Part shown: positions 42,072 through 57,628 of the stretch, in pieces
How the letters are laid out: every line of letters begins with the position of its first letter
Numbering within the stretch: the stretch's first letter is position 1
NCBI GenBank assembly: GCA_041650995.1
Contig: JBAZJZ010000001.1
Coordinates: 299,302 to 363,301 of the forward strand
From: Patescibacteria group bacterium
GTDB lineage: Bacteria; Patescibacteriota; Patescibacteriia; XYB2-FULL-38-15
Reading direction: 5' to 3'
Length of the DNA: 64,000 nucleotides
Position numbers and translations under genes: made by a program
The notes under the pieces: model-generated
Databases searched by the model: none
The model's input: only the letters and a program-made list of their open reading frames with translations
Told to the model about the DNA's origin: nothing

Positions 42072-42160
42072 CTGTCATTCTCGCCCCGCATCAAGTGCGG
42101 GGTAAACTCCAGCGGGAATCCAGGAATAGGAACTGGATCCCCGATCAGGTCGGGGATGAC
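42072..42160. mobile_element. MITE-like palindromic element with TGTCAT termini (89 bp)
   Basis: tgtcattctcgccccg...cggggatgaca; internal hairpins; shares gcgggaatccag with the inverted repeats of the GIY-YIG element. Confidence 0.5.
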
Positions 42161-42185
42161 AATATTATTTTGATTTTTCATCCTA

Positions 42186-42917: not shown

Positions 42918-42991
42918 TTTAATTATTGCCTGAGCTTGTCGAAGGCCCTTCGACTCACTTCGTTCGTTCAGGGAATAAAATATAAAGTCAG

Positions 42992-44625: not shown

Positions 44626-44979
44626 TCACTCATTACGGCAAGAAAGAAAACCGTTGTCTTCCGCCGTTTCGAGAAAATCCAACATTTCCTCGCAGACCGA
44701 GCCGCAATACGGATCGCTCCGCCCCCTTTCAATGTAGGCGCCGAACTCCTCGCGTAAGCGCTGTAAATCCTGAAGGGCGTTACGTATAATTGCTCTTCTC
44801 TTTTCAGAGGACAACCCGATGCCCTGACAAGAGGCCGCCTCCATGCGCGCTATCGAAATATGCAGATGCAGCGCTAGAACCGCGTCGGCGCTCGGTCGAA
44901 CCACCTCGGTTTTGGCAGTGCAACCAACGAACGCAGCCAAGAGAATCGCGTAAATTTTCTTCATCGCCCCTCCTCTCAT
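44626..44979 (-). CDS. GC-rich small lipoprotein (117 aa), paralogue of the next gene
   Basis: Lipobox FVGC; shares the C-terminal DPYCGSVCEEMLDFLETAEDNGF..CR motif with the 136-aa neighbour. Confidence 0.45.
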   Translation of the reverse strand: MRGGAMKKIYAILLAAFVGCTAKTEVVRPSADAVLALHLHISIARMEAASCQGIGLSSEKRRAIIRNALQDLQRLREEFGAYIERGRSDPYCGSVCEEMLDFLETAEDNGFLSCRNE

Positions 44980-45386
44980 GGCCGGCAGAAAAAACCGTTC
45001 TGCCTTGCCTCTTCCAGGAACTTAGTTATCTCGAGGCAGACTGGACCGCAGTAACAGTCAGTCCGTCCCGCCGCGTGGTAAACGTCGAACTCCGCACCGA
45101 GACGACTCACGTCGCGCTCGGCAGCATTTCTCACGGCTTGTCTTGCACCAACTTCCGACATCGCTGCCTCGCAGATTCCGACTTCTGTCCGCCAAGCAGC
45201 CAGCTGGTAGTACTGTCCGGCAGTTCCGCCAAGTGTTGGTTCGCAGGTAACTACCTCGACTGTAACCGGATCAGTTGGCTCTGACAAACTTCCGCCACAA
45301 CCGAAAACGAGAAACAGGAGCCCCAGAATGGCGCCGATTCCTCCGCCATAGTAACGCCGTTGTAGCGTGTATCCACTCTGTTCCAT
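44976..45386 (-). CDS. GC-rich small lipoprotein (136 aa), paralogue
   Basis: Lipobox VFGC; DCYCGPVCLEITKFLEEARQNGFFCR. Confidence 0.45.
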   Translation of the reverse strand: MEQSGYTLQRRYYGGGIGAILGLLFLVFGCGGSLSEPTDPVTVEVVTCEPTLGGTAGQYYQLAAWRTEVGICEAAMSEVGARQAVRNAAERDVSRLGAEFDVYHAAGRTDCYCGPVCLEITKFLEEARQNGFFCRP

Positions 45387-45488
45387 CCCTCAACCCTCCT
45401 TCTATCGCTCGTTTCAGGCGAATATAAAATTTTCTAACTTTTTTTGCTTTTTGTCAAGGAGAGATGTAAAATAAAAACACCCATCCTT

Positions 45489-45899
45489 GTCATTCCCGCG
45501 AAAGCGGGAATCCAGTTTTATGAAAAATTATTATGTTTATATAATGACAAACCGACGAAATGGTACGCTATACATTGGAGTAACAAATGATTTAACCCGC
45601 AGAGTTTACGAACACAAACATAATTTAGCAGATGGATTTACTAAAAAGTATAACATACACCTATTGGTGTATTACGAGGGAACGCCCAATGTTGTAAGCT
45701 CTATTCAAAGAGAAAAACAACTCAAGAAATGGAATAGAAAATGGAAACTTGCACTAATTGAAAAAATTAATCCCGAATGGGAAGATTTATATAATAAAAT
45801 AATTCAATGACTACACTCTTTGTCATCCTCAATTTAAAGCCACAAGTGGCCTTGACCCGGAGATCCAGCGATCTGGATTCCCGCTTTCGCGGGAATGAC
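45489..45899. mobile_element. small element with perfect 27-bp terminal inverted repeats carrying a GIY-YIG nuclease gene
   Basis: gtcattcccgcgaaagcgggaatccag (45489-45515) and its exact reverse complement ctggattcccgctttcgcgggaatgac (45873-45899). Confidence 0.65.
45520..45810 (+). CDS. GIY-YIG domain nuclease (UPF0213/URI-like)
   Basis: YYVYIMTNRRNGTLYIGVTNDLTRRVYEH GIY-YIG core. The track ORF start at 45487 would translate the inverted repeat, so the start is more likely the Met at 45520. Confidence 0.7.
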   Translation: MKNYYVYIMTNRRNGTLYIGVTNDLTRRVYEHKHNLADGFTKKYNIHLLVYYEGTPNVVSSIQREKQLKKWNRKWKLALIEKINPEWEDLYNKIIQ

Positions 45900-45913
45900 A
45901 TTGTGGGTCGGGC

Positions 45914-47209
45914 ATGACAAATACAACTATGTCTTTTTTATCAAAATTCGATCCCGAAATCGCAAACGCGATTGAAAATGAAATTAACCGCCAGCGGTCT
46001 GGTCTCGAAATGATCGCTTCGGAAAATATCGTTTCCCGCGCAGTTTTGGAAGCCATGGGCACGCCACTCACCAATAAATATTCCGAGGGTTATCCTGGCA
46101 AACGTTATTATGGTGGAAATCAGTTTATTGACGTCTCGGAAAATCTGGCCATTGACCGCGCAAAAAAAATCTTTAACGCCGAGCATGCCAATGTCCAGCC
46201 GCACTCCGGCAGCCAGGCCAACGCCGCGGCTTATTTGGCGCTTTTGAATCCTGGCGACAAAATTTTAGCCATGAACTTGGCGCACGGCGGACATCTTTCG
46301 CACGGCTCGCCTGTAAATTTTTCTGGAAAATTTTATAATGTTGTTTTTTACGGGGTGGACAAAGATACCGGCCGAATTGATATGGATGAAGTCAAAGAAA
46401 TCGCGCTTCGGGAAAAACCGCGCCTGATTTTGACTGGAGCTTCGGCTTATCCTCGCGAGATTGATTTTGCCGCTTTTCAAAAAATTGCTGATGAAGTTGG
46501 AGCGTATTTAATGGCTGACATTGCTCATATCGCCGGACTCGTTGCCGCGAAAATTCATCCTAATCCAATTCCCGTTTGCGACGTTGTGACGACCACGACT
46601 CACAAAACTTTACGCGGTCCGCGCGGCGCTTTAATTTTATCAAAAATTGCCGACCGCCTGCGCCCGGAAGATAAAAAAAATCTGGCGCAAAAAATTGACT
46701 CGGCCGTTTTCCCGGGAATGCAAGGCGGTCCGCTTGAACATATAATCGCCGCCAAAGCCGTGGCCTTTCTCGAAGCGCTCCAGCCGGATTTCATTGAATA
46801 CCAAAAACAAATTGTAAAAAATGCCAAAGTTCTGGCGGAGACATTGCTTGGCGGCGGATTAAAATTAGTTTCCGGCGGCACGGATAATCATCTGATTTTG
46901 ATTGACCTCTCCGAGACCGGCCTCGGAGGAAAACAAGTTGAAGACGCGCTGGGCGAAGTGGAAATTTATGTCAACAAAAACATGATTCCTTTTGACACTA
47001 GAAAACCGACCGATCCTTCCGGCATTCGTCTTGGCACCCCAGCCTTGACTACTCGCGGCATGAAAGAAGATGAAATGAAAAAAGTTGGCGAAATGATTGT
47101 AAAAATTATAAAAAATATTTCCGATGAAAATGTAAAAAAAGAAGTCCGCGAAAGTGTTCACGGACTTGTGACGAAGTTCCCGATCTATCCGGGGCTGACT
47201 GTTTTGTAG
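45914..47209 (+). CDS. glyA: serine hydroxymethyltransferase
   Basis: [30 protein letters not shown]-lysine region. The true start may be the Met at 45929. Confidence 0.9.
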
Positions 47210-47222
47210 TAGAGGCGCCCGG

Positions 47223-47411
47223 CTACTTCATACGAGGCTTGGCCATGCTAGCGATCAAGAGTGAAACAATGATCAGCTCAACTGGCCGCACGTATTCCGT
47301 AATACCTACGGTGAAGTGCCGATAGATAATCCACCCGAATATCCCGATGTAGGGAATGAGGAAATCCGCCACTTGCCACACACGCCTAATCAGGCTTTTC
47401 TTCTCACCCAT
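47223..47411 (-). CDS. GC-rich small membrane protein (62 aa)
   Basis: ORF track; RBS aaggagg; preceded by the conserved promoter-like motif. Confidence 0.4.
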   Translation of the reverse strand: MGEKKSLIRRVWQVADFLIPYIGIFGWIIYRHFTVGITEYVRPVELIIVSLLIASMAKPRMK

Positions 47412-47432
47412 TTCTGTCCTCCTTTCCGAGAA

Positions 47433-47462
47433 AACTTAACATGATTTTAAAAAAATGTCAAG
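47433..47462 (-). promoter_or_regulatory. second copy of the conserved promoter-like motif (minus sense cTTGACAtttttttaaaatcatgtTAAGTt)
   Basis: See 39852-39880. Confidence 0.5.
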
Positions 47463-53139: not shown

Positions 53140-53595
53140 CTAAATTTTAATATCCACCTTATCTCCTATTTTTATCCCGTGCTCCGCGGCAAACCCGGCG
53201 TTGACTTCTAAAACATAATTAGCTGGTTCTCTCGGTGTGTAGGTTGATAAAAATTCCGCGGCCGTAACCGGAAGATTTGGCGCGATATCAACAACTACAT
53301 TATTTTTAATCCAAATAATATCAATGGAAAAATTCATATCTTTCATCCAAAATGCCGGCTGACCGGGGGTAGCAAAAATAAAAAGCATTCCATGATTTTT
53401 ATCCAAACTTTTACGGTTGCTTAAACCTTTTGCCATTTCCATCGGCTCATCAGCGATTTCCACTTTAACTTTTACATCATCAATAATTACTGAGCCGTGT
53501 TCTTCGACGTATTGGCCTACTTTTAAAAATCCCGCCGCCGCCAAAATTACGATAAAAATGACCGAATAAAAACGTTCCATAACATTCAATGTCAT
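53140..53595 (-). CDS. DUF192 domain protein
   Basis: MAKGLSNRKSL...GMLFIF...FWMKDMNFSIDIIW pattern. Confidence 0.65.
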   Translation of the reverse strand: MTLNVMERFYSVIFIVILAAAGFLKVGQYVEEHGSVIIDDVKVKVEIADEPMEMAKGLSNRKSLDKNHGMLFIFATPGQPAFWMKDMNFSIDIIWIKNNVVVDIAPNLPVTAAEFLSTYTPREPANYVLEVNAGFAAEHGIKIGDKVDIKI

Positions 53596-53667
53596 TACGA
53601 GCTTAGCGAAGCAATCTCATTTATGGGATTGCCGCGTCGCTCATTTTATTCGCTCCTCGCAATGACA
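53590..53667. mobile_element. MITE-like palindromic element with TGTCATT termini (78 bp)
   Basis: tgtcattacgagc...gctcctcgcaatgaca. Confidence 0.5.
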
Positions 53668-57142: not shown

Positions 57143-57628
57143 AAATTTACCCCTCCCCTTAAGAATTGACTACTCTTCCCCTCCTCCCTGAGGAGGGGTT
57201 GGGGGTGGTGCGTAATTTTTGCAAAATTATTGCCAAAGCATTATCTAAACTATCTCTCACATCGTTGTCTGTAAAACGCACAACTCTTATGCCAGCCCTT
57301 TCAATAAATTCTTGTTTTACGCGGTCGTGTTCCGCAGCTCCAATTTGATAATGACTATCACCATCAATTTCCACCGCGAGTTTAGCTTCCGGACAATAGA
57401 AATCGACAACATACGGCCCTATTCCTTGCTGCCGGCGAAATTTGTAGCCGCCCAGATTATTCCCACATAAATAATGCCAAATTATTTTTTCAGAACACGT
57501 GGGACGGTTGCGAAGATTTCGACGCGTTAACTTTTGTGATTTGCGGTTAAATAGTTTGATCATAACCACCCCTTGATCCCCTCCTTGGAAAGGAGGGGAA
57601 ACTACAACCTTAAGAGGGGGAAATTTAC
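57143..57628. mobile_element. small element with imperfect terminal inverted repeats plus subterminal cccctcc...ggagggg hairpins at both ends, carrying a DUF559 nuclease gene
   Basis: Left aaatttacccctccccttaag and right cttaagagggggaaattt; hairpins at 57177-57198 and 57578-57599. Confidence 0.5.
57159..57569 (-). CDS. DUF559 (Vsr/PD-(D/E)xK-like) endonuclease domain protein
   Basis: RRQQGIGPYVVDFYCPEAKLAVEIDGDSH...RVVRFTDNDV pattern. Confidence 0.7.
   Translation of the reverse strand: MVMIKLFNRKSQKLTRRNLRNRPTCSEKIIWHYLCGNNLGGYKFRRQQGIGPYVVDFYCPEAKLAVEIDGDSHYQIGAAEHDRVKQEFIERAGIRVVRFTDNDVRDSLDNALAIILQKLRTTPNPSSGRRGRVVNS

Follow-up and report, generated by a model that had tools for sequence, protein, structure and literature searches.

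Small single-domain GIY-YIG proteins (SsnA; Ssn family) flanked by hairpin-forming repeats have been described in many bacteria, and the family is nearly synonymous with CDD cd10448 (GIY-YIG_unchar_3) (Chenal et al., Nat Commun 2025; PMC11893778). The Neisseria repeat, NTS, has the sequence CGTCATTCCCGCGMAVGCGGGAATCYRG, and a degenerate pattern, the Ssn-related motif (SRM), was given in the same paper. SsnA and three homologues bind the hairpin solely on single-stranded DNA (ssDNA) and cut a few nucleotides 5' of the repeat; they are inactive on double-stranded DNA (dsDNA), on RNA and on the complementary strand of the repeat. Residues Y6, Y17 and E64 of SsnA are catalytic according to mutagenesis, and in N. 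meningitidis the enzyme lowers transformation by NTS-containing DNA about 5-fold. The mobility of the NTS-ssn-NTS arrangement, past or present, was raised as a hypothesis and left open by these authors (PMC11893778). The present analysis concerns a gene of this kind, ssn, which together with its flanking repeats forms a cassette upstream of glyA in a 64-kb stretch of Patescibacteria DNA (contig JBAZJZ010000001.1, positions 299,302 to 363,301). The whole stretch is referred to as the window, and unprefixed coordinates are positions within it.

The second closely related system is the superfamily of CGTC-tagged repetitive extragenic palindromes (REPs; Di Nocera et al. 2013; PMC3733652), which includes dRS3 of Neisseria (CGTC-1) and RPE-6 of Rickettsia. 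These REPs are mostly arranged as head-to-head dimers and are said to "lack a dedicated transposase" (PMC3733652). The NTS/SRM repeats belong to this superfamily. The repeats of the window share its characteristic features, namely a short palindrome, an unpaired tag and a frequent organization in head-to-head dimers; the stem is 8 bp long and the tag here is TGTC. Among 58 aligned repeat variants the tag is CGTC in 17.

The ssn cassette and its assignment to the Ssn family

The cassette is composed of the following elements:

45488-45515, + strand: left NTS/SRM hairpin repeat TGTCATTCCCGCGAAAGCGGGAATCCAG, ending 4 nt ahead of the ssn start codon, identical to the NTS consensus at 27/28 positions
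45520-45810, + strand: ssn, a 96-aa single-domain GIY-YIG nuclease assigned to the Ssn family (PF01541, similarity to SsnA)
45821-45868, + strand: internal degenerate SRM-like unit TGTCATCCTC...GGAGATCCAG, forming a head-to-head pair with the right NTS
45873-45900, - strand: right NTS/SRM hairpin repeat, exact reverse complement of the left arm, 62 nt 3' of the open reading frame (ORF)
45901-45919, - strand: truncated 3' half of a further SRM, TTGTGGGTCGGGCATGACA, which aligns with the intact SRM CTGGATGCCCGATCAGGTCGGGCATGACA of a related genome (L083)

The two copies of TGTCATTCCCGCGAAAGCGGGAATCCAG, at 45488-45515 (+) and in reverse complement at 45873-45900, lie 357 nt apart and are the longest and the sole perfect inverted pair of the window. 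The initial annotation was right about perfect terminal inverted repeats, although their length is 28 nt and not 27. At up to 3 mismatches the sequence is found twice in the 64-kb window and in none of 100 dinucleotide-preserving shuffles. As ssDNA each arm folds into an 8-bp GC-rich hairpin of -9 kcal/mol (z = -4.5), a value equalled by 0/200 shuffles and in agreement with the hairpins originally proposed. The repeat fits the published SRM pattern, and its only mismatch to the Neisseria NTS is the first base, T for C. The SRM pattern is matched three times in the window, against 0.12 matches expected from shuffles; 431,517 bp of unrelated control loci contain a single match. With the T-rich tail behind it, the left hairpin fits a terminator-like pattern. 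Head-to-head dimers of the repeats are located at 42073-42161 and 45821-45900.

The ssn ORF is intact, starts with the ATG at 45520, stops at 45808-45810 and is the only ORF described between the arms. The GIY-YIG gene that had been noticed there is thereby confirmed, with 96 instead of 97 residues; the Pfam GIY-YIG domain (PF01541) covers residues 3-76 with E = 1.1e-15. The only other Pfam match at E <= 0.01 is T5orf172 (PF10544) with 18.6 bits, under its cut-off of 20, and the generic GIY-YIG domain is the only one assigned from Pfam and NCBIfam. The nearest solved structure is the UPF0213 protein 1zg2, a remote match (E = 3.9e-4). The 94-aa SsnA orthologue of N. gonorrhoeae (L164:1513-1797), which possesses Y6, Y17 and E64 and has NTS copies all around it, served as the SsnA reference. 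With this reference the window protein shares 58% identity over 90 aa (113 bits, pairwise E = 1e-39; in tblastn E = 2e-28 against 7.3 Gb). Its residues Y7, Y18 and E65 align with the catalytic Y6, Y17 and E64 of SsnA, and Y7, Y18, R28, H32, E65 and N84 are invariant in the alignment of 13 family members.

The comparison with reported GIY-YIG elements, which had been suggested at the outset, leads to the Ssn family of PMC11893778. Besides the conserved catalytic residues, the locus shows three further features used to delimit this family: (i) a BLASTP match (E < 1e-10) that covers 75% or more of the query, defined for N. meningitidis SsnA CAX49033.1 and obtained here with the gonococcal orthologue as reference; (ii) a single-domain protein of at most 150 aa with GIY-YIG only; (iii) an SRM within 500 bp both 5' and 3' of the gene, here 4 nt upstream and 62 nt downstream. 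Because the repeat fits SRM and NTS, and because the protein resembles SsnA with aligned catalytic residues, the locus is interpreted as an NTS-ssn-NTS cassette whose enzyme belongs to the site-specific ssDNA nucleases of the Ssn family, with a probability of about 85%. Both the NTS-ssn-NTS layout and the fact that it looks like an insertion sequence had been reported in 2025, and the cassette is a clear further example; the initial annotation arrived at this family-defining architecture independently, from the letters alone.

Two start codons predicted by the ORF caller were correctly recognized as lying on the repeats, TTG 45487 (+) and ATG 45901 (-). Both read MSFPRKRES, an artefact of translating the repeat. 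A further spurious start, the ATG at 45914 that had been assigned to glyA, lies within the truncated repeat remnant 45901-45919.

Hairpin repeats around ssn homologues in other phyla

The 80 closest homologues, 58-73% identical, were collected from bacterial genomes represented by one genome per species. They originate from Patescibacteria, Zixibacteria, Omnitrophota, Dehalococcoidia, Nitrospirales, Brocadia, Ignavibacteria, Bacteroidota, Spirochaetia, Clostridia and alpha-, beta-, gamma- and delta-proteobacteria. The strict SRM pattern is present within 300 bp upstream of 39 of these genes, downstream of 31 and on both sides of 20, and many loci without a strict match carry evident repeat variants outside the pattern. 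When the criterion was relaxed to a hairpin of 5 bp or more behind a GTC(A/G)(T/C) tag, a forward copy lies within 150 bp upstream in 68/80 loci, a reversed copy lies downstream in 68/76, and both are found in 59/76; the density of this motif elsewhere in the same loci predicts about 6% per side. Terminal repeats are thus a regular companion of GIY-YIG homologues of this kind outside the window. The 28-mer TGTCATTCCCGCGAAAGCGGGAATCCAG itself is the commonest variant beside ssn homologues, other phyla included (10 of 81 occurrences), and compensatory changes on both sides of the stem were identified in 7/8 stem pairs.

In about two thirds of the informative comparisons, two loci are homologous at the nucleotide level up to a point no more than 3 nt from the outermost T or A of the repeats. 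In one metagenome-assembled genome (MAG) with two copies of the unit (L010/L011), the 81% identity between them runs precisely from TGTCAT to ATGACA, and the flanks are unrelated.

Close Ssn relatives are absent from 2.9 million viral contigs. The only phage matches obtained are distant ones in Rhizobium phages. Matches in plasmid collections are mostly to large replicons or mislabelled chromosomes; the PLSDB entries NZ_CP119140.1 and NZ_CP119142.1 (L164) are two 2.17-Mb N. gonorrhoeae chromosomes filed as plasmids.

The glyA leader and repeat turnover in related lineages

The insertion site is defined by two conserved features:

45404-45476, + strand: intergenic block conserved ahead of glyA, bordering the insertion site on the left, found alike in lineages with and without the cassette
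45929-47209, + strand: glyA (serine hydroxymethyltransferase; Pfam SHMT), with the conserved start ATGTCTTTTTTATC

The cassette occupies the leader of glyA in the same orientation as this gene, whose start ATG 45929 (ATGTCTTTTTTATC) is kept in all relatives. The gene order is also kept in the glyA relatives, with an elp3-like radical SAM gene, small ORFs, glyA and folD, successively. The upstream block is 80-88% identical to that of the cassette-free lineages L084, L086, L087 and L088. It is possibly the glyA promoter region; a consensus scan gave no sigma-70 match on the + strand.

L083 (a MAG of Candidatus Falkowbacteria), L178 (P0002) and L179 (P0004) have the cassette at the identical site; the last two represent the two closest protein homologues in a large protein database. 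Nine congeneric Patescibacteria lineages were sampled in total; the cassette is present in four and absent from five. In L084, L086 and L087, with a glyA of about 86% nucleotide identity, an AT-rich spacer of about 30 bp replaces the cassette of about 450 bp, and no repeat remnant is left. These are the empty-site alleles of the glyA upstream region whose search had been recommended. They were obtained via glyA relatives, as an exact-pattern metagenome search with the window flanks joined by a gap of 0-30 nt gave no match. Gain or loss within this Patescibacteria genus has therefore involved the whole cassette as one block, and the view that repeats and GIY-YIG gene constitute one discrete unit is borne out by its complete absence from five lineages.

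In L088 the synteny and the upstream block are retained, and about 90 bp of another palindrome replaces the cassette (L088:815-900, CTCTTCGAGCAAGCGAACGAAG...CTCGCTCGAACA). A small palindromic element, GCCTGAGCTTGTCGAAGGCCCTTCGACTCACTTCG..., is located at 42923-42980 upstream of the elp3-like gene and is missing at that site in L083; a copy of it lies in the glyA leader of L085 (2947-2996), at the same spot as the ssn cassette of the window. Since L088 and L085 carry other palindromes at this position, the glyA-leader spot is a recurrent landing site, or hot spot, for unrelated hairpin elements.

Three repeat pieces make up the right end of the cassette, and the 410-bp element originally described is consequently not a simple transposon. 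The internal unit 45821-45868 has a counterpart at the same position in L178, where it is an intact SRM (TGTCATCCCCGACCCGATCGGGGATCCAG), and in L179. The right NTS (45873-45900) is found in both of these lineages, and the remnant 45901-45919 is common to them and the window; L083 has a different intact SRM in place of the right NTS. A comparison limited to the window and L083 would suggest that the right arm was acquired recently in the window lineage. This was rejected, as L178 and L179 have the same composite right end and L083 is the odd one out. The loop of both NTS arms reads GGAAG in L178 and GAAAG in the window; such matching variants of paired arms hint at concerted evolution, in a single case. 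The left NTS of L179 is interrupted by a 29-nt nested insert.

The age of the cassette was estimated from the synonymous divergence (dS) among the three intact copies, which is 0.47-0.60 for ssn and 0.62-0.80 for glyA. The ratio of nonsynonymous to synonymous divergence (dN/dS) of ssn among orthologous copies is 0.07-0.20. In L083 the loss of 1 nt disrupts the reading frame of the gene after residue 69. As ssn dS is near glyA dS, vertical inheritance is the simpler reading, and the cassette is best regarded as old, vertically inherited, under purifying selection and dispensable, with one decayed copy. A recent insertion does not agree with orthologous copies that have diverged about as much as the flanking genes. 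An origin of the cassette younger than the host lineages was considered because the window and L083 copies of the element are 91-95% identical, and was rejected on the same dS values; the identity difference in this pair (92% against 87% over 286 nt) is marginal.

Several further observations were made at this locus. In L178 the glyA allele beside the cassette (L178:3403-4653, compared with window 46050-47450) is divergent, with 62% amino-acid and 66% nucleotide identity, whereas elp3, ssn and folD around it are 81-86% identical to the window at the nucleotide level. The divergent tract extends from about 100-150 nt inside glyA to near folD and looks like an allele replacement adjoining NTS sites. 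On the - strand at 44626-45386 two adjacent small ORFs of 117 and 136 aa are encoded, the latter with no Pfam match. Their nucleotide identity to relatives is about 45-60%, against 80-90% for neighbouring genes, so that they evolve very fast, and their number and length vary by lineage. A short-read contig of another sample (Logan SRR8542065; L003) with an identical upstream gene ends at window position 45514, one base short of the end of the left arm, which could reflect a repeat-induced assembly break or a variant allele.

Outside the cassette, two elements without an ORF have the TGTCAT / ATGACA termini that had been reported for them:

42073-42161, no strand assigned: ORF-less head-to-head dimer of the NTS/SRM family, with a left NTS carrying a nested insert and a right reversed SRM, TGTCATCCCCGACCTGATCGGGGATCCAG
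53590-53667, no strand assigned: 78-bp ORF-less palindrome with TGTCATT / AATGACA ends, of a different subfamily that does not fit the SRM pattern

In the left half of the first element the NTS loop contains a 29-nt nested insert (42084-42112), and the right half fits the SRM pattern. At the orthologous site of the related genome L181 (6124-6190) a clean dimer is found, whose left half is the exact 28-nt NTS. The proposed kinship of this element with the cassette repeats is therefore correct: it is a dimer of the same family. A second similar SRM dimer is present 3' of elp3 in L181 (8622-8689), where the window has none. The 53590-53667 palindrome is absent from the orthologous L181 site, and a copy of 84% identity lies elsewhere in that genome (6948-7029). 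From these differences in presence and absence it follows that TGTCAT-ended elements have changed position since the window and L181 genomes diverged. The suggested family of miniature elements is upheld for at least the 42073 type, as ORF-less elements occupy different sites in related genomes, but the 53590 type stands outside the SRM pattern.

Nested inserts of about 28-29 nt with the layout CCCC...hairpin...TAAACTCCAG were noticed in the loops of different NTS copies (window 42084-42112 and L179:2961-2988). Such an insert could be a mini-element aiming at NTS loops, or could result from conversion between short and long repeat variants. The window also contains a second small-nuclease unit (57159-57600), built around a 136-aa DUF559 / Vsr-like endonuclease ORF at 57159-57569 on the - strand (PF04480, E = 4.5e-28). 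Its hairpin-forming arms, TTCCCCTCCTCCCTGAGGAGGGG at 57176-57198 and CCCCTCCTTGGAAAGGAGGGGAA at 57578-57600, are 83% complementary, and a narrow literature search found no description of DUF559 genes with such hairpin flanks.

Possible functions, mobility and relation to known systems

Beyond the family membership, the architecture, the presence and absence at an orthologous site, the selection and the repeat turnover observed above, a mode of action can be outlined by homology. Like the four tested Ssn enzymes, the window protein would bind the repeat only as an extruded ssDNA hairpin and would cut the bound strand a few nucleotides 5' of the TGTC tag, sparing dsDNA, RNA and the opposite strand of the repeat. 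The inverted arrangement of the two repeats would place these cuts just outside the cassette, one per strand: left of 45488 on the + strand and right of 45900 on the - strand. The gene is probably co-transcribed with glyA, as the cassette sits between the conserved block and the glyA start in the same orientation.

Cleavage of this kind may seed the spread of the repeats or of the cassette. Since GIY-YIG enzymes are hydrolytic and are not known for strand-transfer or ligation chemistry, the likeliest route would be recombination induced by nicks or breaks, or template switching from one repeat copy to another. Excision and pasting in the manner of IS200/IS605 is disfavoured, because there is one cleavable site per strand and the GIY-YIG core is hydrolytic. 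According to this model, NTS-ssn-NTS and the ORF-less dimers would be a mobile system in which a hydrolase nicking ssDNA hairpins causes the repeats, and now and then its own gene, to be copied into new sites via host replication or repair. We regard the model as possible but doubtful. The block gain and loss, the shifting repeats and the old single-copy gene under selection resemble REPIN/RAYT more closely than an insertion sequence.

A number of observations weigh against the overall reading of the locus given here, or limit the evidence for it. The window holds a single ssn copy and three SRM-pattern matches in 64 kb, with no Neisseria-like repeat expansion. The glyA tree is star-like, so the direction, gain or loss, is not separable on it, and the junctions of the cassette against the empty sites are not base-precise. 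The homologue loci show no target-site duplication, target motif or flank consensus outside the repeats beyond the T of TGTC, and the edge of homology at the repeats could mean conservation of a recognition site instead of transposon ends. Finally, the set used for covariation was pre-selected for at least 7/8 pairs, which inflates the percentage paired, and only the compensatory changes count.

The explanation that survives best among the alternatives is a domesticated, host-serving gene. Here Ssn would cut incoming or exposed ssDNA at NTS sites, thereby limiting or shaping the recombination of DNA that arrives by transformation, by conjugation or from ssDNA phages, and the hairpins would be REP-like targets or regulatory elements and not the ends of a transposon. 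Such a role would be compatible with the resemblance to REPIN/RAYT. Purifying selection and long retention at one locus, in the leader of a housekeeping gene and in its orientation, speak for it, as does the terminator-like left hairpin with its T-rich tail. The divergent glyA of L178 beside the cassette fits altered recombination near NTS sites, and the roughly 5-fold effect of N. meningitidis SsnA on transformation also counts in favour. Patescibacteria in general, moreover, are held to depend on DNA uptake. On the other hand, the gene is dispensable, being absent from 5/9 congeneric lineages and frameshifted in one, and very few NTS sites are available in the window to act on. Defence models (PADLOC) give one weak match, the HEase homing-endonuclease model (E = 6.5e-4, 17.6 bits), and the family is essentially absent from phage and viral collections. 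Taken together, a host function appears a serious candidate, somewhat short of even odds.

It is unlikely that the cassette is an autonomous and currently active transposon resembling an insertion sequence, with Ssn as transposase, the NTS as its ends and the ORF-less TGTCAT elements as miniature transposable elements with inverted repeats (MITEs). This view was raised by the authors of PMC11893778, and CGTC REPs were reported without a known transposase (PMC3733652). The terminal inverted repeat layout is kept across phyla, proteins of 60-73% identity are scattered over very distant ones, and some MAGs have several copies with homology confined to the unit (L010/L011). Within the genus, the whole unit is present or absent at the orthologous site, ORF-less dimers and palindromes differ in location between sister genomes, and within a genome the two arms have the same loop variant (GAAAG in the window, GGAAG in L178). 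However, the copies of this lineage are as old as their hosts, under purifying selection and all four orthologous at one site, the window has one copy, and the exact protein has a single known cluster member. Instead of a clean terminus there is a three-piece repeat mosaic at the right end, and neither a target-site duplication nor a target motif was found in the loci compared. The inverted ends give one cut per strand, which makes single-strand excision as in IS200/IS605 impossible, and the lack of known joining chemistry among GIY-YIG nucleases is a further obstacle.

A classical homing endonuclease of the I-TevI type, cutting the empty dsDNA allele and spreading by gene conversion, as the homing-nuclease kind first proposed would imply, is very improbable: the unit is missing from some alleles and the N-terminal motifs weakly match phage homing endonuclease families (E = 2e-5 to 7e-3), the PADLOC HEase model (E = 6.5e-4) and TIGR01453 (group I intron endonuclease, E = 2.2e-5), but the last match reaches 24.6 bits against a cut-off of 56.05 and covers only profile positions 4-86 of 215, the protein has 96 aa and no DNA-binding domain compared with 150-570 aa for the matched enzymes, the cassette lies outside any intron or intein, the homologues lack dsDNA activity (PMC11893778), and the recognition sequence is carried by the element itself and not by the empty site.

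The Ssn family, with an almost unchanged 28-nt hairpin, thus extends to the reduced genomes of Patescibacteria and to at least a dozen other phyla. Such conservation of a protein-DNA pair is striking and becomes relevant if Ssn enzymes are mined as programmable ssDNA cutters. The comparison of nine lineages bears on the mobility question left open in PMC11893778; the comparative evidence that the cassette and its repeats behave as units of gain and loss in a Patescibacteria genus is the new part, and it makes Ssn-driven mobility more testable. If the mobile model were true, it would mean a transposition route without the joining step of a transposase, and Ssn would be the long-missing mobilising enzyme of CGTC-type REPs. 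The sampled genus, with the cassette in 4/9 lineages, shifting dimers and nested loop inserts, would in that case be a natural system in which to catch mobility.

Among known systems, I-TevI-type homing endonucleases and the UPF0213 proteins (YhbQ, BH0048) share the GIY-YIG core (PF01541) with the window protein. It differs from the I-TevI type in lacking a DNA-binding domain, in not being intron-borne and in scoring below the TIGR01453 cut-off. The correspondence with the Ssn/NTS system (PMC11893778) is much closer and includes a single-domain GIY-YIG protein of about 95 aa, hairpins on both sides within 65 bp and the NTS-gene-NTS order. The differences from Neisseria relate to the host, which belongs to the Patescibacteria (candidate phyla radiation, CPR), to the number of repeats (3 pattern matches in 64 kb against hundreds), to the first base of the tag, T in place of C, and to the location of the cassette in the glyA leader, where it is polymorphic among congeners. 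With the CGTC-tagged REPs (PMC3733652) the window repeats have in common the short GC-rich hairpins, the unpaired (C/T)GTC tag and the head-to-head dimers, which the window has at 42073-42161 and in the cassette's right end. In contrast to the 2013 survey, in which no enzyme gene was described, the repeats here bracket an ssn gene, as in PMC11893778.

The last comparison concerns REPIN/RAYT (REPtron) and IS200/IS605, which would have their analogue here in a small nuclease gene flanked by hairpins recognised as ssDNA and accompanied by dispersed ORF-less dimers. RAYT and TnpA are HUH/Y1 enzymes that form covalent intermediates, rejoin DNA and use hairpins located at the two ends of one strand, whereas Ssn is a GIY-YIG hydrolase without known joining activity, and its sites are inverted, one being cleavable per strand. 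By analogy, the locus appears to behave not as a freshly inserted homing element but in the manner of REPIN/RAYT, with a resident nuclease gene and dispersed hairpin repeats; as in that system, there is one copy of the gene, passed on vertically, and it is the repeats that move.

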